This document shows positions 30,031 through 64,000 of a DNA stretch of 64,000 nt, piece after piece. The first letter of the stretch is position 1, and every line of letters begins with the position of its first letter. The notes beneath the pieces are model-generated. The model ran no database searches. It was not told where the DNA came from and was given only the letters and a program-made list of their open reading frames with translations. The DNA is taken from NCBI GenBank assembly GCA_024637035.1, contig JAGXFW010000023.1, forward strand, positions 217,139 through 281,138. Reading direction: 5' to 3'. Source of the stretch: Actinomycetes bacterium. Its GTDB lineage: Bacteria; Actinomycetota; Thermoleophilia; RBG-16-64-13. The position numbers and the translations under genes were made by a program.

Positions 30031-30047
30031 CAAAGAGGAGGCCGACC

Positions 30048-33795: not shown

Positions 33796-33796
33796 G

Positions 33797-37340: not shown

Positions 37341-37617
37341 AGTAACGCGGCAGTGGAGCACTGCATCCCGCCCTTGCCGGTCGGGGCGGGTTATCGCGTT
37401 CCGCCCACCACTGCGCCAGACCACGCGGCGCGGCCCCCTCCCGACTCCCGGTGGGCACCCTGCATGCGCAGGGGGGGCAGACCTGCTCTCCGTGGGGTGC
37501 GCGATGTGACGGGAGTAGCGAGTCACGCCGCTTCATCATCCTCGGTCACCGCACAGCCCGAAACACATGATTGCGACCATCAGCGCTGGAGGGCGCTCCG
37601 AGATCCAGGGGGACGTC

Positions 37618-40035: not shown

Positions 40036-40126
40036 GTCGAGGCCTGAGCGAGCCCAGGTGGGCCGCACCAAGGCCAAGGTGCTAAAGTTCAACCCCGGAA
40101 CCCCCAGTGCCGACAGTAGGGATGGC

Positions 40127-45583: not shown

Positions 45584-45628
45584 GGCGCCGCGATTCTACC
45601 AGAGCGCCACAGTCGGCACGCCGGCAGC

Positions 45629-48600
45629 CTACCAGGTCCGCCGTTGGCCGCCGCCGGTGACGTTGTTATCGTGCATCCCATCGTTGCCGCCGCTCGCTCG
45701 AGACCATCCATGCTCGCTATCGCAGTTCGTGCTGGTCGACGGGTTGCTGATGTTGTTCGCGGCACCGATACTGGCGTTGTGGCTTGTCCACTTGCCATTC
45801 GCTGAGTGGCACGAGCCGCAGAACTGGCCGAAGAAGTCCGCCGTGAGCGCGCCCGCGGCGTTGACCTCCCAAGAGGTCAGGTGGATAGCGGCTCCGGACC
45901 CGGCGGCTCCGGTGCCGAGCAGATACGCGTTCGAGTCGTTCATCACGACGCCATCGACCACGATGTACTCACGCAGGAAGTACACGTTCTGCGATCCGTG
46001 CGGGTCGTGACAGGCGGTGCACTGCATGGCGGCGTAGGCGTAGGCGGGGTTGGAGTCAGAGTACGTAGTGCTCTGGAAGGGGTAGCGTGGACGCCAGTCG
46101 CGGTCGGAGCTGATGCTGCTGCCGTCGCCACTCCCGTGACGCACCGGGGTGGCGGTGCCATCGCCCAACCACTTGGCTGCAATATCCATCGGGACGGCAC
46201 TGCCCATGTTGACCGTCGGAGAAGTGCCGGCGGGCACGGTGTTGTCATGGCAGGCCAGGCAGAATTTGATGGAGTCCGCCGTAGCTTCCGCCGCGCCGCT
46301 GGCCGGGTTGTACGGTGCGGCCGTCCCATGGATGCCGGCAGGGTGATCCGGGTTCAGGTCGGCGTTCGCCCCGGACGGGACGTTCGCGTAGTTGCGAGCC
46401 GCGCCACCCACCACGAGCGTGTTCAGCGTGGAGTAGGCCCTCAGCGCCGTCGGGTACCCCGCCGTCCCTGGCTGCACGTCGGCGTCGAGAACCTTCCAGT
46501 AGTTGCTGGATGGGGTGGCTCCGGCGTTCAGGTGCGGGTTGTGGCAGTTCAAACACTCGATGGCGCCGGTTGTCGTGTTGGCAGTCGCGCCTCCGGTCCC
46601 GCGCTTGGTGACCGAGTACGTCACCCCCTGCTCGCTGTCGAGCACAGGGTGGTGACTCAACGGGACCGCCGCGCCAGCGGAAGCCTTGTTGTAGGCGAGC
46701 GTGCCTGCCGGAGTGGCTGTCGCCGTGAACTTCCGCTGAATGCTGTAGCTCGTCGTGCCCGGCCCGACGAGCCTCCCCGGGCCCGCTGCGGCATGACACT
46801 GGTAGCAGAGGTCCTCCTCGAAGGCCAACGTGTAGTTGGCGTACTGCGTGCCGTGCGGGTTGTGGCACTGCTTGCAGACGCCCACGTAGATGTTCTGAGC
46901 GACGGCAGGCACCGGGGGCGAGTAGGTCAGGCTGCGCGTCTTCGTGCTGGCCCCGTGGCCGGAACTCGTGTACGACGCACCGGGCAGGTTCGGAGCGATG
47001 GGCCCGCCGATGGGTAGGCCGTGGCAGCTATTGCACACTGCGTTGTACTGGGTGTTGTAGTTAGCGGCCGAGGTGCCGTTGAAGGTGCGCACGAATCCCT
47101 TGATGTTCTCCGAGATCAGCTTGTCGTTGGTTGTGCCGTGCTCCGAGTGGCAGCCCTTGCAGGCGATGCTCTCCACCGAGGGCACCCGCAGGTCGTTCAT
47201 CAGGATGCCGGCGCCGCTCAGCTTGTTGTGGCCGCTGCCGGACGCCGGGTAGTTCGTCTTGTGGTCGGTGCCCGTCGAGGCGTTCCACGATGCGCTGCTG
47301 ATGTAGCCGGCCGACGTGGCCGCGGTGGTGTTGTGGCAGGTCCAGCAGAAGTCGTTGCCGGTGACGTTGACGTAGGCTCCCGAGTACGACGGGTCGAGCT
47401 TCTTCACCGCCAGGAAGCGCTGCCCGGTGCCGGTCCGCGCGTGCGCGTTGTGGCAGTTGGAGCACCGCATGACGGCGCCCGTGTTCGTTGTCGCGCCGCT
47501 CACCCACGTGTGGGTGAGAGAGGCCGGCACCGGATGGTACGACCCGGACGAACCCACGATCTTCGTGGACGTGCCGATGACGGCCTCACCGAAGTCCCAG
47601 GAGAAGGGCGAGACGTTGTCGGTGGTCTTCACGTTGTACGACGACCCCGTGCCGTCGTGGCAGGCGTAGCACACCTGCTTCTCGGTAGCCGCGGGGAAGA
47701 GCTTGCCGCCGAGGTTAGAGGCTTGGACGGCGGCACCGTGCACCGAGTGGCAGTTGCGGCACAGGTTCTTGGCGGTCGTGTAGCCCCCGTGCGCCGTGAT
47801 GCCGGTGGCGGCCGTGGTGAAGGTCGTGGTGGACGCCGAGCCGAGCGGATTGCCGGCCAAGTCGGTCACGGCCCCCGAGATCCACACGGTGTACACGGTG
47901 CTGATGTCCATCATGGCGTCGGGATAGACATAGACCCGGGTGCGATCCGAACTCAGCACCACGGTCTCCGCCGAGATGGGCGTCGCCCCGATGCGTATCT
48001 GCACCTTGTCGTTCGTGAGCGTGCTCGGATCCATCTCCTCGCCGAAGACGATCGTGACGAACCCGTTGACAGGGACGCCGGTGGCGAGGTTCGCGGGCGT
48101 GACCGTCGAGACCGTGGGCGCTGTGGCGTCCAGGGAGGCGGCGGCGAACTCGGTGAAGTGACTCACCGTTCCGGTGACCGTGTCGGCCGCCTGGTTCACG
48201 GTCGAGCCGCCCTCCACCTGCACCCACGCCGTTCCGTTGAAGTAGAGGAGCTTGATGGTCGATTCGTCCACAGCCCCGGGCACGTACTTCAGGGTGATCT
48301 GCACCGGGCTTGTGAACAGCTGAGCGGCCGGAGTGGAATTGTAACTCGGGGTCACGAAGACCTTCGGCGGCGAACTCGGGGTGGTGGTGAGTTCGGTGAT
48401 GCCGATGGCCGTGGCCCCGGGGAGCGCACCGGCCGGAACGACGAGGCGCGCTTTGCCGTTGGTGGCGAGGAGCGTTCCGCCGCCCGCGCCCACACTCCCG
48501 TTCACGAGCACCATCGAAGTGTTCGCAACCGCGGACTTCACCGACTCGTTGCTGCTGGCGTCGACCGCCGTCACCTTGTAGTAGTAGACGACTCCCTCGG

Positions 48601-50692
48601 CTCCGTACGTGGTGTCGTCGTAGGTAGTGGTGGCGATCAGAGGGCCGTTCACCTTCGTCGCGAAGGCCCCGCCGGCCGAGGTGTCGCGGTACACGTTGTA
48701 GCCCGCCAAATCGGGAGCGATCGAGGCATCCCAGGAGAGCCGGTTGAGACCGTGTCCCGAGAAGGCCGTGAGACCGGTCAGTTGAACGGGAGGCGTCACG
48801 TCGAGCGCCGGGTTGTAGCCAAGGAAGCCAGATGCTCCCGGAGCTTGGGGCAGGTTCCCGGCCGCGTCGGTCACCGAAGGCGTTGTGAGCTTCACGCTCA
48901 CCGTGTAAGAAGAGCTCACGGTCTGTGCCGAAGTGGTGAGCCGCACCGTCCGGTTGTCGCCGAGCAGCGTAGCCGCCGAGACGGTGAGGCCGGAGATGGT
49001 GAAGTAGGCCGGCAACACGGAGCCCGAGGCCAGGTCCTCACCGAAGAGCACGTCGACGTTGGTCGCGGCAATAGCCACAGCCGCGACGACAGCCGGACCC
49101 GTGTTGTCGATGGTCACCGGTGTGATCGTTGTCGTGGAGGAGTTGGTGAGCACGTCGGTAGCGACCAGGCGGAACTGATACTGCCCATCGGTGCGCGTCG
49201 TGGTGTCGAAGGTGTTGAGGACGGCGTCGGTCACGTTGGCCGATCCGGTGGCCAGCGTGGACCACGACACCGGAGAGACGGCGGAGATGGAGAGGGTCCA
49301 GTTGGAGATCACGGCATCGCTGGCGGTTCCGCGGATCTGATAGGCCGTGCCCCTGATGGTCGAGGGGGCCGTCGGAGCCGTGATGGCCACCGTCGGGCCG
49401 GTGTTGTCCACCCGCACGTACTGAGCGGGCGAGAAGGCGGTGTTGCCGGCCACGTCGCGAAGCTGCGCCTGCAGCTTGTACCTGCCGTCGGCCACGAGGG
49501 CCGTATTCCAGGACACTCGGTATGTGGAGCCTGCCACAGGCGTCGTCTGGTTCACGTCCACCTGGGTGCCCACCGCGTCGTACGCTGCGCCATTCCACGC
49601 ATAGTAATAAAAGGCCACGAAGTTCACGCCCGAGCCGCCGGCGTCGGCAGCCGTGGCGTCGTAGTTCACTGTGCCCCGGATGCCGGTGGGTGGCGGCGCG
49701 CCGTCCACCCCGATGGGTGCGGTGATCGCGGGCGCCGCGATGGTGGCGTCCACCTTGAACAGTTGGCTCTTGTGCGGCGTCTCCTCGTTCGGGATGGCGT
49801 CCCGCGAGTAGTACCAGAGGGTGTTCGTGCCGGTCAGAGCGGAGAACGACGCGCCGTAGAGAGTGCCGGCTCCGGAGGCAGGGTCGCTGTTCCAGTTGTA
49901 GCGAATGATGGTGGGCGAGCCCTCGGGGTCGGTGGCGCTCAGCGTGATGCTGGGCACGGTCTTGAACCAGCCTGAGTCCCCGTCGAGTGCCGCGGGACTC
50001 GTGGAGAGTGACGTGGTGGGGGCGGTGCTGTCGGAGGGCGTCTCGTTCACGCGTAGGTACGACGCCTGGTTGGATCCGGTGGTGCCGTTGAAGAGCAAGT
50101 TGGTGTCATTCGAGTTGTCCCTGTCCACCTCCACGAGAACGCGCAAGCGCCTACCCGCTGGGATAGTGGTGGCGATGTTCGTGAAGTTGACCGTGAGGGT
50201 CTGCGCGCCACTGCCGGTACCGAGAGTCTGCTGATTCAATTGGACGCTGGCGCCGGTCGTCGAGTTGTACTCGTAGAGCGTGACCCTCCAACCGTCCCAT
50301 GTTCCGCTCACCCCCATGAAGAACTGGGCGTTGGCGGCGATCTGCGTGTCTTGGGCGTAGTCGGCCGCGGTGTACACGTCTACCATCCGATACCACGCAC
50401 CGTCCCCCCAGCTGCTCGTACGCACCATGGTGATCGCACTACTCCCGTTGGTGGTGGAGAAGAGGGTCACCCGGTTGGTCGAATTACTGTAGGGGGAACC
50501 AGCAGTCGTCACGTTCGTGGATAGACCGCCGCCCGGGATGGCGACGCCGCTGCTCGCGGTCACATAGTAGTCGACGACCGCGCCCGAGGCCGGCGACGCC
50601 GCCGAGACGACAAAGAAGAGCGCGAGCAGCACGAAGCCCACGAGGACGCGAGCATCCAGCCCCGCGACCCGCAAGCTTGTGGCCATCTTCAC
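45629..50692 (-). CDS. giant multiheme c-type cytochrome (1687 aa), paralog of 19921..25011; 12 CxxCH
   Basis: Signal peptide. Ig-like repeat modules and a conserved block (MDPSTLTNDKVQIRIGA...GITAHGGYTTAKNLCRNCHSVHGAA...CYACHDGTG) nearly identical in arrangement to cytochrome 1. CRNCH, CYACH, CSNCH, CWTCH, CKGCH, CNSCH, CKQCH, CYQCH, CLNCH, CLACH, CTACH, CGSCH. Confidence 0.85.
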   Translation of the reverse strand: MKMATSLRVAGLDARVLVGFVLLALFFVVSAASPASGAVVDYYVTASSGVAIPGGGLSTNVTTAGSPYSNSTNRVTLFSTTNGSSAITMVRTSSWGDGAWYRMVDVYTAADYAQDTQIAANAQFFMGVSGTWDGWRVTLYEYNSTTGASVQLNQQTLGTGSGAQTLTVNFTNIATTIPAGRRLRVLVEVDRDNSNDTNLLFNGTTGSNQASYLRVNETPSDSTAPTTSLSTSPAALDGDSGWFKTVPSITLSATDPEGSPTIIRYNWNSDPASGAGTLYGASFSALTGTNTLWYYSRDAIPNEETPHKSQLFKVDATIAAPAITAPIGVDGAPPPTGIRGTVNYDATAADAGGSGVNFVAFYYYAWNGAAYDAVGTQVDVNQTTPVAGSTYRVSWNTALVADGRYKLQAQLRDVAGNTAFSPAQYVRVDNTGPTVAITAPTAPSTIRGTAYQIRGTASDAVISNWTLSISAVSPVSWSTLATGSANVTDAVLNTFDTTTRTDGQYQFRLVATDVLTNSSTTTITPVTIDNTGPAVVAAVAIAATNVDVLFGEDLASGSVLPAYFTISGLTVSAATLLGDNRTVRLTTSAQTVSSSYTVSVKLTTPSVTDAAGNLPQAPGASGFLGYNPALDVTPPVQLTGLTAFSGHGLNRLSWDASIAPDLAGYNVYRDTSAGGAFATKVNGPLIATTTYDDTTYGAEGVVYYYKVTAVDASSNESVKSAVANTSMVLVNGSVGAGGGTLLATNGKARLVVPAGALPGATAIGITELTTTPSSPPKVFVTPSYNSTPAAQLFTSPVQITLKYVPGAVDESTIKLLYFNGTAWVQVEGGSTVNQAADTVTGTVSHFTEFAAASLDATAPTVSTVTPANLATGVPVNGFVTIVFGEEMDPSTLTNDKVQIRIGATPISAETVVLSSDRTRVYVYPDAMMDISTVYTVWISGAVTDLAGNPLGSASTTTFTTAATGITAHGGYTTAKNLCRNCHSVHGAAVQASNLGGKLFPAATEKQVCYACHDGTGSSYNVKTTDNVSPFSWDFGEAVIGTSTKIVGSSGSYHPVPASLTHTWVSGATTNTGAVMRCSNCHNAHARTGTGQRFLAVKKLDPSYSGAYVNVTGNDFCWTCHNTTAATSAGYISSASWNASTGTDHKTNYPASGSGHNKLSGAGILMNDLRVPSVESIACKGCHSEHGTTNDKLISENIKGFVRTFNGTSAANYNTQYNAVCNSCHGLPIGGPIAPNLPGASYTSSGHGASTKTRSLTYSPPVPAVAQNIYVGVCKQCHNPHGTQYANYTLAFEEDLCYQCHAAAGPGRLVGPGTTSYSIQRKFTATATPAGTLAYNKASAGAAVPLSHHPVLDSEQGVTYSVTKRGTGGATANTTTGAIECLNCHNPHLNAGATPSSNYWKVLDADVQPGTAGYPTALRAYSTLNTLVVGGAARNYANVPSGANADLNPDHPAGIHGTAAPYNPASGAAEATADSIKFCLACHDNTVPAGTSPTVNMGSAVPMDIAAKWLGDGTATPVRHGSGDGSSISSDRDWRPRYPFQSTTYSDSNPAYAYAAMQCTACHDPHGSQNVYFLREYIVVDGVVMNDSNAYLLGTGAAGSGAAIHLTSWEVNAAGALTADFFGQFCGSCHSANGKWTSHNASIGAANNISNPSTSTNCDSEHGWSRASGGNDGMHDNNVTGGGQRRTW

Positions 50693-50868
50693 GTTCTCAC
50701 GTGGACTACTGATCGATGCCTCCCTTGACCAACCTCGACCTATCTTCTATCGGCACGTAGGGTGTTTCGCTAGAGTGCACATCACCCTCCAAGCCGCCAC
50801 ACGTTTCTCAAGTTCGCATGCTATCAAAGCACGGTGTCGACGGGCATAGCGAAAATACCGTCCCGTGT

Positions 50869-51756
50869 TCAGTCAGCCACCGTGGTTGATGTGGTCCCGT
50901 CGACCCCCGACAGCGTCGTGGTCGTGGATGCTCCCCGCAATCGGTCGAGCAAAGCCCGCGCTTCCGCGTTGTCGGGGTTCTCCGCCAGAGCCTTCTCGAG
51001 TTGCAGGGCGGCGTTGTCCGCTTGATCGACCGCCACCAACTGCTCGGCGAGCGCCACACGGATCTGGTCGAACTGTACCCCCATAGGGCGCATCTCGATC
51101 ACCTCGAAGTAGAGCCTGATGGCCCGGTCGGCGTCGCCGAGTCCGGCGACCGTCTCGGCGAGGGCCACGCGCGCCGCGGTGAAGTCGCTGTTGAGGCGCA
51201 AAGACTCCTCGTAGCTCGCGGCTGCCTCTTCGGGCTGCTCCAGGCGCCTCTGGATGTTCCCGATGCGGAAGTGGGCTTCGAAATCACGGGCGTCGAGTTC
51301 GAGGATGTCCCGGTACACCTGCATAGCGCCGTCCCAATCGAGTCCGCGCTCATACACGAGAGCCAACAAGTAGCGGGCTTGCTTATCCTGCGGATTGACC
51401 TCGAGATGGGCTTCCAGCTTCGACTGAGCGGCCGCCAGGTCACCCGATTGGATGTCCGAGGTGCCGGGGATCGCTTCGCCCAATGTGGTACTGGTGGTCT
51501 CTACGGCCGAAGTGGAAGTAGTCGTCGCGGACTCTCCGCGGAGCGAAGCCGCGATCGCGACCGCGCCGCCGCCGAGAAGTAGGACTACCCCGAGTGCCAG
51601 AAGAAGCCGCCGTACCGCCAAGGAGTCGCCTCCCCATTCGTCCTGGACCGATGCCGCCACGGGGCGATGGCCGCTGGAAAACGCAGCAGAGCGCGACCCG
51701 TACCCGTGGTTCCGAGCCGGAATAGTATGACACATGACTCCGCCTGCGCGCGTCAT
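50869..51756 (-). CDS. membrane-anchored TPR-repeat protein upstream of cytochrome 2
   Basis: TM helix LLLALGVVLLLGGGAVAIA then TPR-like repeats; start uncertain. Confidence 0.5.
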   Translation of the reverse strand: MTRAGGVMCHTIPARNHGYGSRSAAFSSGHRPVAASVQDEWGGDSLAVRRLLLALGVVLLLGGGAVAIAASLRGESATTTSTSAVETTSTTLGEAIPGTSDIQSGDLAAAQSKLEAHLEVNPQDKQARYLLALVYERGLDWDGAMQVYRDILELDARDFEAHFRIGNIQRRLEQPEEAAASYEESLRLNSDFTAARVALAETVAGLGDADRAIRLYFEVIEMRPMGVQFDQIRVALAEQLVAVDQADNAALQLEKALAENPDNAEARALLDRLRGASTTTTLSGVDGTTSTTVAD

Positions 51757-53149: not shown

Positions 53150-54337
53150 ATGGCGAGGATTGATACGGATCTCCTGGGCCTTCAGATCGTCGCGCTCGAC
53201 ACCGCCACTGTGGTGGGCGAAGTGGACGGCCTTCTGATCGATGACGCGACGGTCAAGGTGGCCGGCTTTCTGGTGGATCTGGGCCTCTATGAGGCGTCGG
53301 TCCTGCCGTACTCTTCGGCCCACGCCGTTGGACTCGACGCGGTCGTGGTAGAGAGCGGCTCCAAGATCGCGGCCATCTCGGCCGACCCCGCGCTCGCGGC
53401 CCTCGCGGAGAAGGACATCACCATCACCGACGCCAAGGCGATCACGCGTGAGGGTCGTACGGTCGGTACCATCGGAGACTATTTCATCGACACCGAGACC
53501 GGCGACGTGGTGGGCATGGAGTTCATCGCCGCTGACCAGACGGTGTACCCCCGCGAGACCGCGGTGATCCCCGCGTCGAGCGTCTACCGTCTGGGGCGTG
53601 ACATCATCGTGCTCGAGGCCGACTACGCCCAGCACCTGCAGAAGGACGAGGGTTCGCTGGAGCGGGTAGCCAAGCCGGTCGAGCCGATCAAGGCAGAAGC
53701 CCCCGCAGCTGCCCCGGTCGTCGTCGCTGCGCCCGTACAGCCGGTCGCTGTCGTCGAGCCGGAGCCGGAGCCGCCGGTCGTGTCCGAACCCGCTCCCGTC
53801 GAAGAGCCCCCCGCGCCCGAGCCGGCTCAGGAGTTGGAGGAGGCCTTCGAGGCCATCACCACCCCCGAAGAGGCACCGGCCGTCGAAGCGGCGCAAGAAG
53901 CCGAAGAGGTCGTTGAGGCTATCGAAGAACCGCCCGTCGAATTGGTGGCAGAGCTCAAGGAGATCGAGCCCGAAGTCGAGGTGGCCGAGGAGATCACCCC
54001 GCTTGCAGCGGTGACCCCCGCCTACGCCGACGACACTCTGACCTCGGAGCCCGCCCCCGACCTGTCAGAGCCCCAGACCGCGGTCGAAGAAGCTGTCGTC
54101 GAAGAAGCACCCGTGGCGGAGGCCCCGGTCGAAGAGGCCCCAGCCACGGAAGCTCCCGCCGAAGATGCGTTCACGTCACAGCAGAAGCACTTCCTCATCG
54201 GCAAGCGCGTGCTTCGTCGCATCGAGACTCCCTCCGGCGAACTGATCGCCGACATGGGTGAACTGGTCACGTTCGAGATCATCCAGAAGGCGAAGGGTTC
54301 CGACCAACTTCTCATTCTTTCCCTGAACGTCGAATAG
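53150..54337 (+). CDS. PRC-barrel domain protein with long acidic Pro/Glu-rich linker and conserved C-terminal domain
   Basis: MARIDTDLLGLQIVALDTATVVGEVDGLLIDD (PRC barrel x2), then a PE-rich low-complexity region. Confidence 0.6.
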   Translation: MARIDTDLLGLQIVALDTATVVGEVDGLLIDDATVKVAGFLVDLGLYEASVLPYSSAHAVGLDAVVVESGSKIAAISADPALAALAEKDITITDAKAITREGRTVGTIGDYFIDTETGDVVGMEFIAADQTVYPRETAVIPASSVYRLGRDIIVLEADYAQHLQKDEGSLERVAKPVEPIKAEAPAAAPVVVAAPVQPVAVVEPEPEPPVVSEPAPVEEPPAPEPAQELEEAFEAITTPEEAPAVEAAQEAEEVVEAIEEPPVELVAELKEIEPEVEVAEEITPLAAVTPAYADDTLTSEPAPDLSEPQTAVEEAVVEEAPVAEAPVEEAPATEAPAEDAFTSQQKHFLIGKRVLRRIETPSGELIADMGELVTFEIIQKAKGSDQLLILSLNVE

Positions 54338-54405: not shown

Positions 54406-54889
54406 TATTGTCGACCCCGTGTCACGCCGGCGGTGGACCACGGTTCGGAATCGGTAGAGCCGGAATCGGTCCGTTTTTGTCAGAGTAGAATTGCGTGGTT
54501 GCAGACGAATAATCCGCCGGCTTTCCAAACTAGCTGCAAATGGCGCATTCCTAGACTCAATGCGGTTGATTCGCCGCCTGAAGAAGTCCTTGACAGACCC
54601 CTTGGATGCCTATAGGCTATCGCCTGAGAGTATAAGGAGTTGGAGGCGTAGATCCCCGTTTCCGTACCTGGGCACTTGGGGCGGGGGGAGCCAGTAGTGC
54701 AACCGGCCATGGGGATGGCCGGTTTCTTTCGTTTTTCCGGTTCATCTCAAGAACATGAGACAGTCACTTCAGACCGGGGCCTCGGCCCCGGTCGACTCGT
54801 CTCTAGAGCACTACTACCTGCCGTAGTAGTGCCGATGTTCACGAACTCCTTTCCTCCAGAGACTAATGTGGAAAGGAGGTGAATCGCAA

Positions 54890-57800
54890 ATGAAAATGAA
54901 GAAACTCGTAATCTGTATCACTCTGGTCGCGGCAGTCTTGTTGCTCGCGGCCGCTGCACCCGCGCTGGCTCTGACCAGCACGGACTGCAAGAACTGCCAC
55001 TTGGCACCGCTCGGTGAGGCCACGGGTGCACTGGTGAACTTCGGCGTGAACCCGGTGACGGTACCCGATAAGTGCGTCGTCTGTCACGACGGTGTGAGTA
55101 TGCCGGGGCACAACTTCGCACCCAGCACTCTCACCGACGTGGACAAGATCCACCGTTCGCACACCGGCACACTAAGCTTCGGCCTGGACATGACGGTGCC
55201 GCCGTTCACTACGTGCGGCAACAACGGTTCCGGAGGCTGTCACTCCGGGGTCGTCGACTGCGAATGGTGCCACGGCACCGACATCACCCATCAACTAGCG
55301 GCCCACGGCAACAGCACGCCGGGGACGGTCGTTGCAGGTGTTCCGACGCGCGTGGTCAGCAACATGAACACCGCACCGGTGACCAAGTCGCTCACGTGTC
55401 TTGCGGCGCAATGTCACGCATTGCAGGCGCCGGCGGCAGGACTCTCCCAACAGAGCGTTCTGTTCGCGCCGTCGTGCATCCAATCCGGTTGCCACGGTGA
55501 TGAGTCGCACACCGTCGTCCACGAGCCCGACGCGGCTCTGACGGCGACGTATGCCACCTGCGGAGCCGCCGGTTGTCACGACCTCAACCTGGTCACGGAA
55601 CACGTGACCAATCAGGCGCTCGCTTGCGGCACGTGTCACGACTCGACCGAATCGGCTGTTGTCGGGGCTATCGCCGCCGGCTCAGCTCCTGGTGGAGCCA
55701 AGCAAGGCTGTTACGTCTGTCACGGCGCGGGTGCGGGCAACCATACGCCGCAGCACGCCTTGACGAACCCGGTGCAGCCACCGACGGATTGCCAGTCGGC
55801 CTCGTGCCATGTGGACAACTTGGTCACGGAGCACATCGATCGTCGCGCACTCACATGCGATACCTGCCACGCCGGCTCTACCGCCGTGCAGGGTGTGATC
55901 ACGACGTTCAAGGCCATCGCGCAGAACCCGACGTGTGAGGACTGTCACGGCACGATCACCGGACATGCTGTGCAGCATGACCTGACGAACCCTGTGGCTC
56001 CTCCGGCCGAGTGCCAGTACTGTCACCCCACCAACCTGTTGTCCGTGCACATCAACCCGGTCTTCCCGACCGACGTGAACGGCAGCACCTGGGGGGCGTA
56101 CAACTGCAACACATGTCACTCGCCGAGCAGCAGAGCATATACGTTCGTGACGGCCTTCTCTGCCAGCGCGGCCAACCCCAACTGCGCGACGTGTCACGCG
56201 GTCGCGAGCGTCCACGTCGATCGTCACCTGACGACCTCGACGGCATGCTTCGACAGCGGGTGTCACGTGAGCACCAACCTGGCCACGCTCCACGCGGGGT
56301 ACGGCCGGGGCTGTAACACCTGTCATACGGCTTCTCCGCGCGCCGGAGTCCGCGAGGCCATCCTCGCGAACAACACCTCGTGCGAGGCCTGCCACATGTC
56401 AGGGCACTTCGATCAGCACGCGTTGCCCGCCGACAAGACCATCGGCTCCGGGTACTACAAGTACTCGAACCAATCGTCCGGCACCACCGACTGCGCCATC
56501 TGTCACACGAACAACGTGATCTTGGAGCACACCGGTGACGCCACGACGGGTCGCCCGGCCTGGCTCGCGGCGAACGGCTCACCGCTCAACTGCGACACGT
56601 GCCACAAGAGCACGCGCGCGGCAGTGGTGGCCGCTATCGCGGCAGCCGCAACCGGCCAGCTGACGAACTGCGACCAATGTCACACGGTCCACGGCACGCC
56701 AACGTTGGAGCACCAGTCGCCGACCTCGGCGCCTGACCAGAGCTGCGGCCAGAGTGGGTGCCACAACGCGAACCTGCTGGTGGAGCACGAGATCCGTTGG
56801 GCAGTGGAACCATCGGACACGCAGAACAACACTCTCATGATTGGGGGTGTCTGCAACCGGTGCCACCTCGGCAACACGGGCGCCCTGTCGAAGACCTTGG
56901 TGTTGACGGCCATCGACAACGGCGACCGAACGTGCCAGGCGTGCCACGGCGCGAACGCGGGCGCGGGTCACACCGCGACTCACGATCCCGACGCGGCGCT
57001 CTCGGCTACGTACGCCTCATGTGCCGATCCCGGTTGTCACGTTCTGAACATCGCCACGCAGCACGTCGGCGATACGTTCAAGAGCGGTGTCGTCGGTTCG
57101 TGCAACACGTGTCACAGCAGCACGGCCCCCGCGTACGCCACGGCCGCCATCGCGGCGTGGAAGACCACGGGAGCCAAGCAGGGCTGCTTCGTGTGTCACG
57201 GCGGCAACGCCGGAGCACACCTGACGCAGCACGCGCTCACCAACCCGGTGCAGCCGCCTGTCGCGTGCCAGGGTTCCACGTGTCACGTGGACAACTTGGT
57301 GACGGAGCACGTCGATCGTCGTGCGCTCAACTGCGCCACGTGCCACAGCGGCTCTGCCGCAGTGCAGCAGGTCATCGCGACTTACCGCACGGGTGGCTCG
57401 AAGGCCACCATGAACCCGATGTGCACCGAGTGCCACGGGCCGACGGCCGGTCAGCACGTGCAACAGCACGAGCTCGCCGCGTCCGACTGCTCTCTGTGCC
57501 ACTCGAACAACCTGGTGACCGAGCACATCGTCAACAACCCATTGGGTTGTGACACGTGCCACGGCGCTGGTGCGTCGGCCACGGTGAAGTCGGTGATCGC
57601 CACGTACGGCGGCGCGAATCCGGCACTGCCGCTGTGCACGAGCTGTCACGCCGCGAACACGTATCACGCGGGCGCGACCGCCAAACACACGGCCAACGAA
57701 GAAACCGACTGCCAGAGCTGCCACCTGATGATGCTCCCGACGGAACACGCTCGGAGCACCAGCATCAGCAACTCGCGCAGCTGCGGTGCGTGTCACCCGC

Positions 57801-58375
57801 TGCCATCGTCGTTCGTCTGGACGTACAAGTGTGCGGACTGCCATAAGACCGGCGGTCTGGCTCCGGTGCGCCATCTGGCTGAGACCACGAAGCACGTGTC
57901 CTCTCAGACCTATTGCGCGAAGTCCGGATGCCACGCCAACACGCTGAAGACGGTCCACTCGGTCGTCGGATGCAGTGCGTGCCACAGCACCACCAAGGTA
58001 CCGACCTCGTCGAATTGCCTCACCGCTGGATGCCACGCCACGGGCCTAGCCCATCATGACGTCGCTCCGACGTTCAAGTTCGGCACGACGTCATCGGCCA
58101 ACATCCAACGGGCATGCACGACGGCCTGTCACGAGCACGACAACACGCATCAAAACGGCAACGACTGCTGGGGCAGGTGTCACGGCCCGGGCCTGAGGGA
58201 GGACTTCCACACAGCGGAGTCCGACCATCAAGCGAGCAGCGCGTGCGCCAAGTGCCACAACACGAGCTCGGCTCAGGCAAGCCAGTGCAGGACGTGCCAT
58301 AGCTTCGGCTCGAACTGGTGGGTGCCGTACGACATCCCCACCCCGACGACGACGTCCACCTCGTCCCAGCGATGA
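54890..58375 (+). CDS. giant multiheme c-type cytochrome (~1161 aa) with ~43 heme-binding motifs incl. 10 CX4CH, 2 CX3CH, 1 CX7CH
   Basis: Signal MKMKKLVICITLVAAVLLLAAAAPALA (AGGAGGTG Shine-Dalgarno). 30 CxxCH; plus CLAAQCH, CIQSGCH, CGAAGCH, CQSASCH, CFDSGCH, CGQSGCH, CADPGCH, CQGSTCH, CAKSGCH, CLTAGCH (CX4CH); CTTACH, CWGRCH (CX3CH); CGNNGSGGCH. Repeated diheme modules of the form C-x4-CH-V-x-N-L-V-T-E-H...C-x-T-CH. Confidence 0.85.
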   Translation: MKMKKLVICITLVAAVLLLAAAAPALALTSTDCKNCHLAPLGEATGALVNFGVNPVTVPDKCVVCHDGVSMPGHNFAPSTLTDVDKIHRSHTGTLSFGLDMTVPPFTTCGNNGSGGCHSGVVDCEWCHGTDITHQLAAHGNSTPGTVVAGVPTRVVSNMNTAPVTKSLTCLAAQCHALQAPAAGLSQQSVLFAPSCIQSGCHGDESHTVVHEPDAALTATYATCGAAGCHDLNLVTEHVTNQALACGTCHDSTESAVVGAIAAGSAPGGAKQGCYVCHGAGAGNHTPQHALTNPVQPPTDCQSASCHVDNLVTEHIDRRALTCDTCHAGSTAVQGVITTFKAIAQNPTCEDCHGTITGHAVQHDLTNPVAPPAECQYCHPTNLLSVHINPVFPTDVNGSTWGAYNCNTCHSPSSRAYTFVTAFSASAANPNCATCHAVASVHVDRHLTTSTACFDSGCHVSTNLATLHAGYGRGCNTCHTASPRAGVREAILANNTSCEACHMSGHFDQHALPADKTIGSGYYKYSNQSSGTTDCAICHTNNVILEHTGDATTGRPAWLAANGSPLNCDTCHKSTRAAVVAAIAAAATGQLTNCDQCHTVHGTPTLEHQSPTSAPDQSCGQSGCHNANLLVEHEIRWAVEPSDTQNNTLMIGGVCNRCHLGNTGALSKTLVLTAIDNGDRTCQACHGANAGAGHTATHDPDAALSATYASCADPGCHVLNIATQHVGDTFKSGVVGSCNTCHSSTAPAYATAAIAAWKTTGAKQGCFVCHGGNAGAHLTQHALTNPVQPPVACQGSTCHVDNLVTEHVDRRALNCATCHSGSAAVQQVIATYRTGGSKATMNPMCTECHGPTAGQHVQQHELAASDCSLCHSNNLVTEHIVNNPLGCDTCHGAGASATVKSVIATYGGANPALPLCTSCHAANTYHAGATAKHTANEETDCQSCHLMMLPTEHARSTSISNSRSCGACHPLPSSFVWTYKCADCHKTGGLAPVRHLAETTKHVSSQTYCAKSGCHANTLKTVHSVVGCSACHSTTKVPTSSNCLTAGCHATGLAHHDVAPTFKFGTTSSANIQRACTTACHEHDNTHQNGNDCWGRCHGPGLREDFHTAESDHQASSACAKCHNTSSAQASQCRTCHSFGSNWWVPYDIPTPTTTSTSSQR

Positions 58376-58624: not shown

Positions 58625-59641
58625 CTAGTAGGTGTAGACCACCAGCCGGCGCGCGCCGCCGTCGGACACGACGATGCGGTCGTTCGTGATGACGATGCCC
58701 TCAGGAAGGGTCAGCCGCCTGGTGTCGCCGGGGCCACGCCCGTACGTGTAGAGGAGGGCTCCGTCCGAGCCGTACACGTGCACGGCCTGGCCGAACGTGT
58801 CCACCACGTGAAGGCGGCCGAACCTGTCGAAGGCCAGGGCTCGTGGCAGCACCAGCCCTTCCTCGGTATCCGCTTGGTCGATCACCGTGACCACGCCGCT
58901 CTCCGCGCCGATCACCTGCACCCGCTCGTTGTTACTGTCGGCGACGTACACCAGACCGTCGCGATCCACCGCCAGCGCGTTCGGGAAAGAGAACTCACCA
59001 GGATGGAACCCATCGCCCCCGAAGTACCGAAGAAACGAACCGGATGTGGAGAACACCTTCACACGCTGGTCGCCGACATCGGTGAGTAGCACCTCGGTCG
59101 CTGTGACCGCTAGACCCACCGGGGAGAGGAGTTCGGAGCGGGTGCGCTCCTCCTCCGAGATGAAGTCTCCCAGGAACGAACCGTCTGGAGTGAGTCGCCA
59201 CACGCGTCCGTTGGCGGCATCCGCGACCAGGAGCGTGCCGTCGGCCAGCACGCCCACGGCCGTAGGTTGGGGATCGCGGGGCAGTTCCTGCTCGAGGTCG
59301 TCGGGCGTGATAGGGATGAAGCCGATCTGGGCTTCCTGGCCGCCGGTGAGATCGAGCACCGCGACGCGCTGACCCTCGCTATCGGCGACGTACACGCGGC
59401 TCCCCGACACCGCGGAGTTGCGCGGGCGGAACGGCCGGTCGGCCGGTGCCTCCACCGCGTAGAGGAACGAAGGCTCTCCGGCGTTCTGGCCTGGCCCGAG
59501 TGTTGTGGTGGTAGACACGACCTCCGGCGGCGCGCTGTCGACCCGCAGATAGATCGCTACCAGGGCCACGAGCGCCACCGAGAGGACCACGATCAGAGCT
59601 ATGTACAGGCGCCGAGGAGCCGCCATCACCGATGAGCTCAT
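58625..59641 (-). CDS. membrane-anchored NHL-repeat beta-propeller protein
   Basis: N-terminal TM; six NHL-like repeats (e.g. RVYVADSEGQRVAVLD, GTLLVADAANGRVWRLT, LVYVADSNNERVQVI, RLHVVDTFGQAVHVY). Confidence 0.6.
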   Translation of the reverse strand: MSSSVMAAPRRLYIALIVVLSVALVALVAIYLRVDSAPPEVVSTTTTLGPGQNAGEPSFLYAVEAPADRPFRPRNSAVSGSRVYVADSEGQRVAVLDLTGGQEAQIGFIPITPDDLEQELPRDPQPTAVGVLADGTLLVADAANGRVWRLTPDGSFLGDFISEEERTRSELLSPVGLAVTATEVLLTDVGDQRVKVFSTSGSFLRYFGGDGFHPGEFSFPNALAVDRDGLVYVADSNNERVQVIGAESGVVTVIDQADTEEGLVLPRALAFDRFGRLHVVDTFGQAVHVYGSDGALLYTYGRGPGDTRRLTLPEGIVITNDRIVVSDGGARRLVVYTY

Positions 59642-59837
59642 CCGCCCCCGCTACACGAACCGCGCACGATGAAGCGAGGCGCGACGGGCCTCTCGGCCTG
59701 TGACACCACTTGGCGGTTGAAGCACTCCTCACGCACGATATACTGTTCCTTCGACCGAGCCGACACGGCTTTTTGCAGCCACACGACGCCTTCGGCAGGC
59801 CGAAGACGCCTTCGGCAGGCTACCACCAAGGGAGCAG

Positions 59838-60842
59838 GTGTTCAAACCCGCAGAAACCGCGCAACGGGCCGTGGCGCTGCTCGGCCGCCTTCCGCTCAAG
59901 GCTCTCCTCATCGTGGTGGTCTTTCTGTTCGCCGTCGCGGAGGTTGGCTTCGTGGTCCAGGCCACCACCCAGCGCGGGTGCTCGTGGTGCCACGTGCCGG
60001 AGCGCGTCCTTGCCGAGAATTCCGCAGGCAGCCATGCCTCCGTGCGCTGCCTCGATTGCCATAGGACCCAGGGCTCGCTGAACCTGCTGGAACTGAACGT
60101 GCGTGCCGTCCGCAACCTCATCGTGCACGTGAGCCCGTTCTCAGACCCCGACGCCTCCCGGGCATTCGTCCCCTCCTCCACCTGCTTGGCATGCCACGAA
60201 GGCGAGATCGTCGACCGCCTGGCGGTGGCCAACGACATCCGCATGAGGCATTCCGACGTGCTGGACGCGCGCATCCCGTGCGCCTCATGTCACGTTCGAG
60301 CACTCCACATCGCGAGTACCGTCACAACGGGGCTCACTCACGCCAGCTGCTCCTTCTGCCACGACGGCACGACGGCCGGCACAGCGTGCAGTGTCTGTCA
60401 CATGAAAGAGCCCACTGGTGGAGCCGCCCAGCTTCCGGGCATCGAGGCGATAGTCCACGGGCCGGACGTGCGCACCATCCACGGCATGGGCGACCTCAGC
60501 ACCTGCACCACCTGCCACGCCCGCACGTTCTGCAAGAGCTGCCACGGCGTCGAGCTCCCGCACGACCCGAACGCATTCCCGCACCTCCACGGCGCCCAGG
60601 CCATAGAAGCACGCGGAGCCTGCACAGACTGCCACAAGCAGACCTTCTGCGACGCGTGTCACCAGATCGAGATGCCGCATCCCGAGGGCTTCCTACCCGA
60701 ACACGAGGTTCGGCTGCAAGAACTGGACCGAGCAACGTGCGACCGGTGCCACGTGCCTGAAGACTGTCAGTACTGCCACACCGCCCACATCCATCCGGGG
60801 CTTCCTCCTGAAGCGCTCGAGCAGCTGCGCGGCGGCGGATGA
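59838..60842 (+). CDS. membrane-anchored multiheme c-type cytochrome, 12 CxxCH, NapC/NrfH-like N-terminus (candidate quinol dehydrogenase)
   Basis: One TM helix immediately followed by the first CxxCH (VVQATTQRGCSWCH), as in NapC/NirT/NrfH. 12 CxxCH total. Confidence 0.75.
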   Translation: MFKPAETAQRAVALLGRLPLKALLIVVVFLFAVAEVGFVVQATTQRGCSWCHVPERVLAENSAGSHASVRCLDCHRTQGSLNLLELNVRAVRNLIVHVSPFSDPDASRAFVPSSTCLACHEGEIVDRLAVANDIRMRHSDVLDARIPCASCHVRALHIASTVTTGLTHASCSFCHDGTTAGTACSVCHMKEPTGGAAQLPGIEAIVHGPDVRTIHGMGDLSTCTTCHARTFCKSCHGVELPHDPNAFPHLHGAQAIEARGACTDCHKQTFCDACHQIEMPHPEGFLPEHEVRLQELDRATCDRCHVPEDCQYCHTAHIHPGLPPEALEQLRGGG

Positions 60843-60855: not shown

Positions 60856-61926
60856 ATGATGTCGTTCCTCCGGACCCTGCTTACCGACATGCGCCAAGTG
60901 TGGGCAGACCCTCAAGCCGACCCGCAGAGGACCGTGGTGTTCATCGCCGCGGGCGCGATCGCGCTGCTTCTTGTGTTCGTGGTGCTCCTCATGATCCTCT
61001 CCTGGGGTCCACGCATCGAGCGAGAGAAGAAACGTCGATGGAGGGAGCGCTTCGTCACGCCTCTCCTGGTGCCCGGGGTCCTGCTCGTGTTCCTGGGCCT
61101 CTTCGTGGCCGGCGACGAGTTCGCCACCGCCCCCACCACCTGCGGCCGCTGTCACGAGATCGCGCCGAGCGTGGCGTCCTGGAACAGTTCGGATCACGCG
61201 GGGAACGACTGCCTGCGCTGCCACGGCGACCGCGGAGTCATGGGGTTCGTCGCCACCCGCGTGCGCGGACTCAGCAACCTGACGACGCACTACCTGGGCG
61301 GCGCACCCCGGCTCGACGCGGGAGTGAGCGACTCGCGCTGCCTTCGGTGCCACGGTGACATCACAACGGGAACCGCCCAGTTCGGCTCACTTCGGGTTCG
61401 CCATGAGGATTTCCTGGGCGTCGGGATCAGCTGCCTCGGATGCCACGGGCAGCCCGGTCACCTGGTCACAGAAGGGTTCGTCGAACGGCCGAGCATGGAC
61501 AAATGCTTGACCTGCCACAACAACCAGGATGCCAGTGCCGCCTGCGCGACCTGCCACCTCACCGACGTGGCCGAGATCCGCGATATCCCCGACTCCTACC
61601 CTAAGGCCCACCTGGCCGAGAAAGGCACCTGCGAAGGCTGTCATAGCCTGGAACCGTGCAAGGAGTGTCACGGCCTCGACATGCCTCATCCGCCTTCGTT
61701 CTCTACATACGAGCATGCCCCTCTGGCCGCATTCGGCGGCAAGGAGGAGCTCTGCTACCGGTGCCACGAACCCGAGGAATGCCGCGAGTGTCACCTGGCC
61801 TTCGATGCGCACGGCCCTGATTGGCAGACACGCCACGGCCTCCAACCGCCGGCGACGTCCAACTGCTCCAGCTGCCACGACGACATCCCCACCACCCCGA
61901 TCTGCGAGTTCTGCCACCAGCCATGA
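60856..61926 (+). CDS. membrane-anchored multiheme c-type cytochrome, 12 CxxCH (paralogous partner of 59838..60842)
   Basis: Two hydrophobic segments then CGRCH... 12 CxxCH; shared C-x-x-CHG-x-x-MPHP patterns with the neighbouring cytochrome. Confidence 0.75.
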   Translation: MMSFLRTLLTDMRQVWADPQADPQRTVVFIAAGAIALLLVFVVLLMILSWGPRIEREKKRRWRERFVTPLLVPGVLLVFLGLFVAGDEFATAPTTCGRCHEIAPSVASWNSSDHAGNDCLRCHGDRGVMGFVATRVRGLSNLTTHYLGGAPRLDAGVSDSRCLRCHGDITTGTAQFGSLRVRHEDFLGVGISCLGCHGQPGHLVTEGFVERPSMDKCLTCHNNQDASAACATCHLTDVAEIRDIPDSYPKAHLAEKGTCEGCHSLEPCKECHGLDMPHPPSFSTYEHAPLAAFGGKEELCYRCHEPEECRECHLAFDAHGPDWQTRHGLQPPATSNCSSCHDDIPTTPICEFCHQP

Positions 61927-63941
61927 GCAGTCCGGCGAAGGCGGCGCCTCCCCTCGCGGTGTGGGCGGCGGCTGCCGCCCTCTTCGCTCTGCCGCTGATC
62001 TACCTGCCCGACTCGCATCACGTGTACGCCCTTCCCAAGGCGACGGTGTTCCGAGCCGCCGTGATTCTCATGCTCCTTGCGGGCTTCATGCGATTGCTGG
62101 GGAAGGACGCCGGAAGACCCGTCTTCCGCGCGCCCGAGCTACTCCTCCTGGGGTTCCTCGCGTGGGTCGCGATGGCGGCGTTCACATCGGGTTGGCCCTT
62201 CGTGGCGTTGTTCGGCACCTCTCCGCGATACGAGGGTGCGCTCGGGTTCTTCGGATATGCGGCCTTCTTCTGGACGGCCTCCCGGGCTACGCTCGCGCAG
62301 ATCAAGCTCTTGCTGCGAGCGATCGCGCTCAGCGGCGCGATCCTTGGCCTCGCCGCGCTCCTCGAGATGCTCGGACCCTTCCGCCCCCCCGGGTTCGGGG
62401 CCTTCGGTCTCCGAGCCACGTCATTGATGGGCAACCCCGTGTTCCTCGGAGCGTGGATGGTCATGGCGATCCCCGCCACGCTCGCCGGGATGTGCCTCAC
62501 CCGCCGCCGCGCGGAGCTGACGTTTGCCCTGGTCGCACTCGGCCTGCAGGCGGCCGGCCTGTATCTCAGCGCCGGCCGGGGAGCCTGGCTCGGCGCGGTG
62601 GCGGGCCTGGTGGTCGCGGGTGCGCTTCTGCTCCTCGTGAGACTGCGCTCGGGAAGACTCAAGGGCCACGGGGAAGCGCGCCGCCGCGGATCCGCCCTGC
62701 CCCACCGGCCGCTCCTCGTGGGCGCGGCGGCCGCAGGCCTCATGGTGGTGGCGGTGGGGCTCACCATCGTCTTCACGCCTGGTGTGGCCGCCAGCGGCAC
62801 CCGCCTGACCGAGGCCTTCGACGCGGTCGCGCAGGGTCAAGGCGGCGGCTCGGCCGAGACCCGACTCGTCATGTGGCGCGCGACACTCGATCTGGTTGCG
62901 GAGCACCCACTGCGGGGCGCTGGCCCGGAGACCTTCCTTGGGGAGTTCCCCCGGGTGCGCCCCTTACGACTCGTGCAGTTGGAGGACGCCGCGGCCTACC
63001 CCGATCGTCCCCACAACAGCTGGCTCTATCTGGCCTACGCGACGGGACTGCCGGGGTTGGCGCTGTACGTGGGGTTCTTGCTTGCCACGGCCTTCCTGGT
63101 AGTCCGGTCCCTCCTTCGGAACCCACACCCGTCCTGGCAGCGCACGATCGTGACCTGCGCCCTGCTCGGAGGTGCGACCGCCTACGAGGTACAGGCGCTG
63201 TTCAGCTTCAGCCTCCTCTGGACGACCCCCGCCGCGATGACCTTGTTGGGCATCACGCTCGCCCTGACCACGCGCGGGGAAGTCGCGGGGGCACTCCGCG
63301 CGCCCGCCTGGGCCGCGCGGGTGGGTGGTGTCGCCCTGTTTGCCGTCGCGCTCGCCCTGCTCGCGCCCGCGGTGCGCGACCCCTGGGCCGACCGGCAGTT
63401 CAGACGCGCCGTGCACGAACCCTGGGTGGCAGTGGAGGCGACCTCCCGGGCCGTGAGTCTCTCCCCCCGCGACGCCGAGTACGTGATCGGGTACGGGCGC
63501 GCTTTGGAGGAGGCGGCCCGCGACCGAGGCGATCCTTCCCTCCTCTCCCGAGCCACCCTCGCCTACGAAGACGCCGAGCGGCGCATCCCCCACCACCCCG
63601 ATATGCTCTTCTCCATCGCCCGAGTGCAGGCCATGCGCGCTGAGCTTCAGACGGCGATCCGCACCTACGAACAGGTGCTCTCTCGCGACCGCTACCACAC
63701 GGGGGCCCTCTTCAACCTGGCGGCCATCCGCCTCGAACTCGGCGACGCTGCCGGTGCGGAGCCCCTAGCCGCGCGCATCTTGTCATACGACGAGTCAGAC
63801 GCGGGTGCCTGGTACCTGCTGGGTCGCGCCCACCAGGCGCAGGGGAGGCCCTCAGAGGCGCGGGAAGCATACGAGCGGGCCCTAACCCTCGACCCCGGTC
63901 TCGACGACGCACAGGCCGCCCTGCAGAGCCTGGGGGGCTGA
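61923..63941 (+). CDS. O-antigen ligase-like (Wzy_C) polytopic membrane protein fused to C-terminal TPR repeats
   Basis: ~11 TM helices with a large loop typical of Wzy_C/O-antigen ligase, C-terminal ~250 aa TPR. ATG at 61923 overlaps the stop of the upstream cytochrome gene (ATGA). Confidence 0.55.
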   Translation: MSSPAKAAPPLAVWAAAAALFALPLIYLPDSHHVYALPKATVFRAAVILMLLAGFMRLLGKDAGRPVFRAPELLLLGFLAWVAMAAFTSGWPFVALFGTSPRYEGALGFFGYAAFFWTASRATLAQIKLLLRAIALSGAILGLAALLEMLGPFRPPGFGAFGLRATSLMGNPVFLGAWMVMAIPATLAGMCLTRRRAELTFALVALGLQAAGLYLSAGRGAWLGAVAGLVVAGALLLLVRLRSGRLKGHGEARRRGSALPHRPLLVGAAAAGLMVVAVGLTIVFTPGVAASGTRLTEAFDAVAQGQGGGSAETRLVMWRATLDLVAEHPLRGAGPETFLGEFPRVRPLRLVQLEDAAAYPDRPHNSWLYLAYATGLPGLALYVGFLLATAFLVVRSLLRNPHPSWQRTIVTCALLGGATAYEVQALFSFSLLWTTPAAMTLLGITLALTTRGEVAGALRAPAWAARVGGVALFAVALALLAPAVRDPWADRQFRRAVHEPWVAVEATSRAVSLSPRDAEYVIGYGRALEEAARDRGDPSLLSRATLAYEDAERRIPHHPDMLFSIARVQAMRAELQTAIRTYEQVLSRDRYHTGALFNLAAIRLELGDAAGAEPLAARILSYDESDAGAWYLLGRAHQAQGRPSEAREAYERALTLDPGLDDAQAALQSLGG

Positions 63942-64000
63942 TCAGAGCAGCCGGTCGAGCTCCTGCTTTGCCGGCATGAACCCGGGGTCGACCACGAGGG

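Follow-up and report, generated by a model that had tools for sequence, protein, structure and literature searches.

A Wzy_C-TPR membrane protein encoded in a multiheme cytochrome operon of Actinomycetota, a candidate O-oligosaccharyltransferase

The window analysed here, a stretch of 64,000 nucleotides of contig JAGXFW010000023.1 (positions 217,139 to 281,138, forward strand) from an Actinomycetes bacterium (Actinomycetota; Thermoleophilia; assembly GCA_024637035.1), encodes a 672-aa protein in which a membrane core of the Wzy_C family is followed by a C-terminal TPR domain. Its gene, referred to as Wzy_C-TPR 'A', is the last of a compact three-gene operon, in which it is preceded by two genes, nap1 and nap2, for NapC/NirT-like cytochromes with 12 CXXCH motifs each. 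The favoured reading is that the protein would be a dedicated O-oligosaccharyltransferase (O-OTase) for proteins of the cytochrome module, to which a probability of roughly 0.45 is given. Comparative genomics gives it good support, with the chemical step itself being proposed.

Architecture, fold and putative active site

Wzy_C-TPR 'A' belongs to the WaaL/PglL (Wzy_C, GT-C-like) superfamily. Pfam places Wzy_C (PF04932) at aa 205-383 with 61.7 bits against a cut-off of 31.7 (E = 9.1e-17) and TPR families at roughly aa 530-668 (TPR_2, E = 4.8e-13), and the AlphaFold2 (AF2) model shows 12 helices, i.e. about six TPR repeats, in aa 500-670. With Wzy_C above its cut-off and about six C-terminal repeats, the fusion of an O-antigen-ligase-like protein with TPR, put forward in the original prediction, is borne out. 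The open reading frame (ORF) has a G+C content at third codon positions (GC3) of 0.84. The AF2 model, for which the input alignment consisted of database proteins only, has a pLDDT of 81.9, a pTM of 0.84 and 13 helices of transmembrane length. Its best Foldseek match is 7tpg_B (E = 9.6e-7; TM-score 0.55, target-normalised), and the remaining matches are all TPR proteins. In the PDB, the WaaL of C. metallidurans (7TPG) is the sole solved structure matched by a profile of the membrane domain (E = 8.3e-13). It was reached only by this profile; phmmer with the membrane domain alone found no match in the PDB, and a PDB search with the full-length alignment was dominated by TPR proteins. NCBIfam gives matches to IctB and PEP_O_lig_1, every one of them under its cut-off, and a homologue with 82% identity carries the NCBI name 'O-antigen ligase family protein', nothing more specific.

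The HMMER alignment sets R219, R314 and H364 against R191, R265 and H313 in the WaaL of C. metallidurans. Residues R215, R288 and H338 matter for function in E. coli WaaL, and the counterparts in N. meningitidis PglL, R224, R298 and H349, are conserved (PMC3643930). All 28 distinct relatives, which reach down to about 22% identity, have R314, W318, P329, G332, G334 and H364. R164 and the G170-N171-P172 motif vary in them hardly or not at all, and 24 of them keep R219. The conserved Arg/Arg/His and the other conserved residues fall in loops that are predicted to be external. An Arg/Arg/His site that is conserved and predicted to be external argues for an active lipid-pyrophosphate-glycan transferase, and the enzyme, judged from sequence, looks catalytically competent. 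According to the positive-inside rule, hydropathy, loop charges, the AF2 helix map and the 12-transmembrane core of WaaL, 12 WaaL-like helices and a 13th helix would bring the TPR domain to the outer side of the membrane, where the putative catalytic loop (aa 284-365) would also lie. From a TPR domain in this position one would expect a partner that is a macromolecule, in the simplest case a protein.

An external TPR domain is also the starting point of a different explanation, which is improbable, that the protein is a non-catalytic assembly factor or scaffold, whose TPR domain would bind (apo)cytochromes in the manner of CcmI or NrfG and whose polytopic part would only anchor or organise the NapC-like pair. 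PF23914 (TPR_CcmH_CycH) is matched over its cut-off (48.6 bits against 42), TPR proteins accompany every cytochrome cluster of the window (the order TPR protein, giant cytochrome, ResB, CcsA occurs twice), and TPR/NrfG-like and NHL proteins are found in other clusters for extracellular electron transfer (EET; bioRxiv 10.1101/2022.05.06.490989). However, the PF23914 match is short, covering just 45 of 158 profile positions, and stands among 15 generic TPR matches. The TPR domain likewise has only generic similarity to the other TPR proteins of the window, which therefore offers no argument for a shared cytochrome-binding function. Moreover, CcmI and NrfG are System I maturation factors, while the genes of this organism are for System II (ResB/CcsA), and the invariance of Arg and His in the external loop across the 28 relatives argues for a retained activity.

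As the sole solved homologue is a WaaL and the NCBI name of the 82%-identical homologue points in the same direction, a classical WaaL that transfers O-antigen onto lipid A-core in a diderm has to be considered. This is very improbable and was rejected on taxonomy, locus context and synteny, as was chance adjacency to the cytochromes (below). The named relatives are all Actinomycetota (Thermoleophilia and Ca. Aquicultoria) of the kingdom Bacillati, and, the closest named ones being metagenome-assembled genomes (MAGs) of Thermoleophilia and other Actinomycetota, a role as lipid A-core ligase is unlikely. Actinomycetota are an established monoderm phylum without lipopolysaccharide (LPS). In the window and in close relatives the gene lies in a cytochrome operon and not in an LPS core or O-antigen locus, and the scanned genes of the window include no LPS or outer-membrane gene. 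A TPR domain is absent from WaaL proteins, of which that in 7TPG has 413 aa.

The cytochrome operon and its conserved module

The ATG of Wzy_C-TPR 'A' (61923-61925) overlaps the TGA of nap2 (61924-61926) as ATGA (the sequence reads ...CAG CCA TGA GC), and nap1 and nap2 are separated by 13 nt. The sole sigma-70-like promoter site of the region, at 59717-59744, lies upstream of nap1. Translational coupling of the gene to an upstream cytochrome gene, as originally predicted, is found in this overlap with the stop codon of the 12-heme nap2. Features of the operon and of its surroundings are listed in Table 1.

Table 1. Positions of the Wzy_C-TPR gene, its parts and the neighbouring genes in the window
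Feature	Position	Strand	Remarks
Wzy_C-TPR gene 'A' (672 aa)	61923..63941	+	Putative WaaL-superfamily membrane glycan transferase with C-terminal TPR; ORF, Pfam, WaaL 7TPG profile, AF2, Foldseek
Pfam Wzy_C core, aa 205-383	62535..63071	+	Contains SRGAW (R219), the large external loop and the PHN motif (H364)
Large loop, predicted external, aa 284-365	62772-63017	+	Within the Wzy_C core; holds R314 and W318
H364 codon of the PHN motif	63012-63014	+	Within the Wzy_C core
13th transmembrane helix, aa 462-485	63306..63377	+	Predicted from hydropathy, loop charges and AF2 helix H462-498
TPR domain, about 6 repeats, aa ~500-670	63420..63932	+	Predicted extracytoplasmic; Pfam TPR, AF2 helices, TPR matches in the PDB
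nap1, 12-CXXCH NapC/NirT-like cytochrome	59838..60842	+	One N-terminal transmembrane helix; first of the three operon genes
nap2, 12-CXXCH cytochrome with NapC/NirT N-terminal region	60856..61926	+	Two N-terminal transmembrane helices; stop codon overlaps ATG of Wzy_C-TPR 'A'
NHL beta-propeller protein, membrane-anchored	58625..59641	-	Divergent; conserved member of the module; S/T/A/P-rich linker after the transmembrane helix
1169-aa cytochrome, 30 CXXCH, C-terminal PTPTTTSTSSQR tail	54866..58375	+	Position upstream of the module conserved in close relatives
Paralog Wzy_C-TPR 'B', C-terminal end (…DPGFMPAKQELDRLL, then stop)	63942..64000	-	Convergent; cut by the window edge; compare the C-termini of 'B' in loci L004 and L003

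The closest homologues (35-82% identity) are encoded in MAGs of Thermoleophilia and other Actinomycetota, and five loci (44-82% identity) share one layout. Genes for PRC-barrel proteins, a large cytochrome, an NHL propeller (minus strand), nap1, nap2 and Wzy_C-TPR 'A' meet a convergent one-strand block that encodes, in the order of transcription, a GT4 glycosyltransferase, a PatA_N protein, a second GT4 protein, a phosphoglycosyl transferase (PGT; Bac_transf), a small transmembrane-anchored TPR protein, an NHL propeller, a secreted 6-7-heme cytochrome of about 300 aa and the paralog Wzy_C-TPR 'B', which ends beside 'A'. The window stops at the edge of this block, and its content past position 64000 is taken from relatives with 82% identity. 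In the five loci, which are of high GC, the genes for PGT, the two GT4 proteins and PatA_N run in the same direction as 'B' and its cytochrome sub-module, and a relative with 35% identity adjoins GT4 and GT2 genes. The neighbouring glycan-assembly genes that were to be sought outside the window are thus found directly downstream in relatives with 44-82% identity, in the form of the PGT gene, two GT4 genes and a second Wzy_C-TPR paralog.

In the window, 'A' and 'B' abut without a spacer at 63939-63944, where the TGA of 'A' and TCA, the stop codon of 'B' on the other strand, make up the palindrome TGATCA. There is no room for a terminator between the two convergent genes, and the gap in L004 is likewise zero. 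PRC-barrel proteins (53150-54337, plus strand) are encoded directly upstream of the large 30-35-heme cytochrome, an arrangement kept in all close relatives (e.g. L001, L003 and L004).

A scan of species-representative genomes brought up diverged Wzy_C-TPR members of 22-29% identity in genomes of 41-51% GC, including Ca. Oleimmundimicrobium of the class Ca. Aquicultoria. In four loci of Actinomycetota MAGs (L012, L013, L014 and L025), Wzy_C-TPR is encoded beside a 12-heme NapC-like pair, NHL propellers and a TPR protein of about 213 aa, with gene orders and orientations that vary. In the low-GC loci the enzyme lies inside pure cytochrome islands that are devoid of glycosyltransferases. No multiheme neighbours were found beside the non-actinobacterial relatives. 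In the reverse direction, a nap2 alignment was scanned against metagenomes, which yielded 70 loci. A Wzy_C-TPR member was present within 1.4 kb of nap2 in all ten loci with nap2 at E <= 1e-32 and a flank of at least 3.4 kb on each side. In two low-GC loci, L032 (6779-11077) and L035 (6797-11065), Wzy_C-TPR separates nap1 from nap2, and about 8 kb away there is a second copy. Among five random representatives of the library, the order nap1-nap2-Wzy_C-TPR was found in two (L102 and L104, the latter with two tandem Wzy_C-TPR copies after nap2); of the other three, one had just a 6-heme protein nearby and two were on contigs too short. The linkage holds at 22-30% identity, at 40-66% GC and in four gene orders, and the same linkage is seen in dozens of independent contigs.

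The arrangement of the cytochromes and Wzy_C-TPR is not due to chance. Since the window is dense in cytochrome genes, some adjacency is expected, and an unrelated neighbour with no functional tie to the cytochromes could be imagined; the chances of this are very slim in view of the overlapping start and stop codons, a linkage that survives such divergence and rearrangement, and the ten informative loci of the reverse search. The operon structure and the rearrangement-tolerant linkage together point to the module of NapC-like cytochromes, NHL propellers, TPR protein and 6-7-heme cytochrome as the partner.

Putative acceptor and donor, and the rest of the window

In the proposed mechanism, the twelve-helix core would use R219, R314 and H364 to bind an undecaprenyl-pyrophosphate (Und-PP)-linked glycan on the outer side of the cytoplasmic membrane, and via the 13th helix the six-repeat TPR domain would come to lie on this side as well. 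There it would recruit the acceptor, onto which the enzyme would move the glycan en bloc. Most probably the acceptor is one of the proteins of the co-transcribed cytochrome module, candidates being the nap1 and nap2 cytochromes, the NHL propellers, the small TPR protein, the secreted 6-7-heme cytochrome and the neighbouring large cytochromes. In the high-GC clade, the donor glycan may be made by the products of the adjacent PGT and GT4 genes. The purpose of such a modification might be to stabilise or position the electron conduit in the monoderm envelope.

The original prediction had the surface cytochromes as possible substrates and pointed to Thr/Ser-rich tracts in the giant ones. The motifs that it quoted, GGYSNATN (aa 942) and TTTTAGVV (aa 1255), do exist, both in the 1696-aa cytochrome at 19921-25011 (minus strand), where Ser and Thr make up 21% of the residues. 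The S-layer-type domains assumed for the giant cytochromes, on the other hand, were not confirmed: Pfam gives only Ig-like Big_5/Big_7 domains in this protein and in that at 45629-50692 (minus strand), and neither SLH nor any other S-layer domain in either. These proteins are encoded 11-42 kb away from Wzy_C-TPR 'A', and the conserved linkage points not to them but to the NapC-like/NHL/TPR/6-7-heme module. Nearer candidates for acceptor tracts are the linker VDSAPPEVVSTTTTLGPG (stretch VDSAPPEVVSTTTTLGPGQNAGEP) of the NHL protein, which is rich in Ser, Thr, Ala and Pro and follows the transmembrane anchor, and the Thr/Ser tail PTPTTTSTSSQR at the end of the 30-heme cytochrome. Similar linkers are present in the TPR proteins of the window. 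In membrane-anchored external proteins of this organism, linkers of this kind come right after the transmembrane helix at 58625-59641, 25008-25913 and 50869-51756 (all minus strand; e.g. STTTTLGPG and SATTTSTSAVETTSTT), and they could be general tracts for O-glycosylation.

Several observations weigh against an O-OTase dedicated to the module. PglL_A (PF15864) and Wzy_C_2 (PF11846) are both without a match in Wzy_C-TPR 'A' in Pfam at E <= 0.01. R219 is replaced in four of the 28 relatives. Ser and Thr account for only 12% of nap1 and nap2, the very pair to which the gene is coupled, and the Ser/Thr-rich tracts, that of the NHL linker included, are not conserved in the low-GC lineages. No homologues of the PGT and GT4 genes are found in the low-GC loci. 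No Wzx flippase and no Wzz/PCP chain-length regulator was found among the called genes of the five 22-kb loci, although they may be encoded elsewhere, and the absence of a flippase there speaks against the reading. The Wzy_C+TPR architecture is common, with 53 representatives at E <= 1e-30 and more than 100 full-length members (~650-720 aa) at 50% clustering, and many of these have no cytochrome linkage. Two high-GC loci, L058 (5425-10918) and L062 (8949-15402), have the small TPR protein, the NHL propeller, the 6-7-heme cytochrome, nap1 and nap2, but no Wzy_C-TPR gene was found within 10 kb of the module. Wzy_C-TPR looks like a frequent accessory of the module and not like an obligatory electron-transfer subunit. 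Finally, the evidence is compatible with a protein and with a glycopolymer as the acceptor. In L062, an ORF of 694 aa next to the module was considered as a divergent Wzy_C-TPR and rejected, as it is an S15 peptidase.

For the predicted O-OTase, the architecture, the coupling, the conserved active site, the predicted outward TPR domain and the glycan genes of relatives are in favour, while PglL motifs, S-layer domains and the giant cytochromes as partner are not supported. The principal competitor is that Wzy_C-TPR 'A' acts on a glycopolymer instead of a protein, together with paralog 'B', either as a polymerase that would join Und-PP-linked repeat units or as a ligase that would attach such units to a lipid anchor or wall glycopolymer; a local polysaccharide matrix would then embed the cytochromes, and the TPR domain would merely dock the enzyme to the cytochrome complex. 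This is unlikely, if still a serious alternative. Pfam Wzy_C also spans Wzy-type polymerases and the NCBIfam matches are all sub-threshold, the two diverged paralogs of each locus (24% identity between 'A' and 'B') could act as a pair of polymerase and ligase, PGT and GT4 genes lie alongside, the coupled cytochromes have no obvious acceptor tracts, and certain cytochrome modules have no Wzy_C-TPR gene. On the other hand, a glycopolymer pathway sits poorly with the lack of a Wzx flippase or chain-length regulator in any 22-kb locus and with the low-GC cytochrome islands that have no glycosyltransferases. In addition, 'A' and 'B' both have a TPR domain and each follows a cytochrome gene, and the insertion between nap1 and nap2 in L032 and L035 suits a protein partner better.

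A broader form of the O-OTase proposal is that Wzy_C-TPR enzymes are an integral and ancient part of the cytochrome conduit of monoderm Actinomycetota, where they would O-glycosylate the NapC-like, NHL or secreted cytochrome components or tether them to wall glycopolymer. This may tentatively be entertained, with slightly less confidence than the favoured reading. If it is true, glycan attachment fixes the electron wire across a thick wall. The passage of electrons across the thick wall of Gram-positive type is poorly understood, and every carrier of the module is uncultured. An apparently active glycan ligase within an operon of membrane cytochromes of the quinol side leads to the hypothesis that glycosylation or glycan tethering takes part in the assembly of the conduit. 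If so, multiheme cytochromes or their propeller partners would be a new class of O-OTase substrate, in a phylum that is also new for such enzymes. If the glycopolymer explanation is true instead, the module still ties polysaccharide synthesis to EET in monoderms. In either event, nap1, nap2, Wzy_C-TPR, the NHL propeller, the small TPR protein and the 6-7-heme cytochrome provide a six-gene marker for metagenomes. Collectively, the data suggest that glycan attachment helps build the electron-export machinery in uncultured Actinomycetota of Gram-positive type.

The rest of the window contains two parallel operons, at 17889-25913 and 42781-51756 (both minus strand), each encoding a transmembrane-anchored TPR protein, a giant multiheme cytochrome, ResB and CcsA. 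The giant cytochromes have 1696 aa with 15 CXXCH and 1687 aa with 12 CXXCH, with Ig-like Big_5 domains, and each of them seems to be served by a System II maturation pair and a TPR partner of its own. Between the cytochrome clusters lie genes for menaquinone (futalosine type) and heme precursors at 25937-35269 and 35944-37539 (both minus strand), comprising two MqnC/CofH-like radical SAM genes, UbiE, UbiA, UbiD and HemL, and the region has the look of a respiratory 'island'. A gene for a B12-binding radical SAM protein adjoins the cytochrome clusters in the window (40058-41590, plus strand), and another adjoins the cytochrome module in the unrelated metagenome locus L062 (18813-20603, plus strand). 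There are also genes for a DUF2193 protein (3887-5620, minus strand; E = 2e-224), which is described in Pfam as uncharacterized and conserved in archaea, and for a 797-aa protein that has no Pfam match (37567-39960, plus strand).

Comparison with known systems

There are some Gram-positive enzymes with a similar combination of domains. WsfB, a putative S-layer O-OTase, consists of Wzy_C and a C-terminal TPR, and WsaB is paired with a TPR protein, WsaA (PMC2943079). The likeness of Wzy_C-TPR 'A' to WsfB of Paenibacillus alvei and WsaB/WsaA of Geobacillus stearothermophilus is by described architecture, and the module has both a fused TPR domain and a separate TPR protein of about 220 aa. As in these systems, the host is monoderm and a WsaP-like PGT and glycosyltransferases are encoded nearby (here in the high-GC relatives, beyond the window). 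Unlike in these systems, the partners are multiheme cytochromes and NHL propellers instead of an S-layer protein, and no ABC transporter, flippase or nucleotide-sugar genes are seen.

Genes for O-OTases are usually adjacent to and co-oriented with the gene of the target protein, and PglL_A and Wzy_C_2 flanking Wzy_C are the criterion for PglL/PglS (PMC3643930, PMC12645811). The O-OTases TfpO and TfpM also do without these two domains, as Wzy_C-TPR 'A' does. PglL, PglS, TfpO (PilO) and TfpM share with it the Wzy_C core with Arg/Arg/His (PMC3643930) and presumably the en bloc transfer of an Und-PP-linked glycan. In their case the target gene is usually adjacent, and here the adjacent, co-oriented and coupled genes are those of candidate targets. 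Wzy_C-TPR 'A' differs from them in its 13th transmembrane helix and six-repeat TPR domain, in a neighbour that is a cytochrome and not a pilin, and in its monoderm phylum. A c-type cytochrome, c5, serves as reporter glycoprotein for the O-linked glycosylation system of Neisseria (PMC8091471). Like WsfB and WsaB/WsaA and the usual closeness of O-OTase and target genes, this is a precedent in favour of a protein as acceptor.

WaaL of C. metallidurans (PDB 7TPG/7TPJ) is the sole solved homologue and has the aligned Arg/Arg/His, yet the identity is only 20%. Unlike WaaL, Wzy_C-TPR 'A' has a TPR domain and belongs to a cytochrome operon, and a lipid A-core acceptor is not expected in Actinomycetota. 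In eukaryotes, TMTC1-4 and other GT-C enzymes are polytopic transferases of lipid-linked sugars, fused to a lumenal TPR domain that selects protein substrates. They offer an analogy only, as TMTC1-4 belong to a different GT-C family and transfer a monosaccharide from a Dol-P-Man donor, and no homology is claimed. CcmI/CycH and NrfG resemble Wzy_C-TPR 'A' in having a membrane-anchored extracytoplasmic TPR domain encoded beside c-type cytochromes, with the reservation that the PF23914 match is short and generic. They differ from it in being System I factors without Wzy_C, whereas this organism uses ResB/CcsA. Both NHL and TPR proteins have been described alongside EET cytochromes (bioRxiv 10.1101/2022.05.06.490989). 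Within the library searched, no report was found that ties O-antigen-ligase-like genes to multiheme cytochromes, and nothing relevant turned up on EET in Thermoleophilia, on NHL and NapC proteins of Actinobacteria, on the biogenesis of nanowires or on cytochromes of Aquicultoria. Among the systems compared, and by analogy, Wzy_C-TPR 'A' would work most like an O-OTase that has an acceptor-recognition domain built in.

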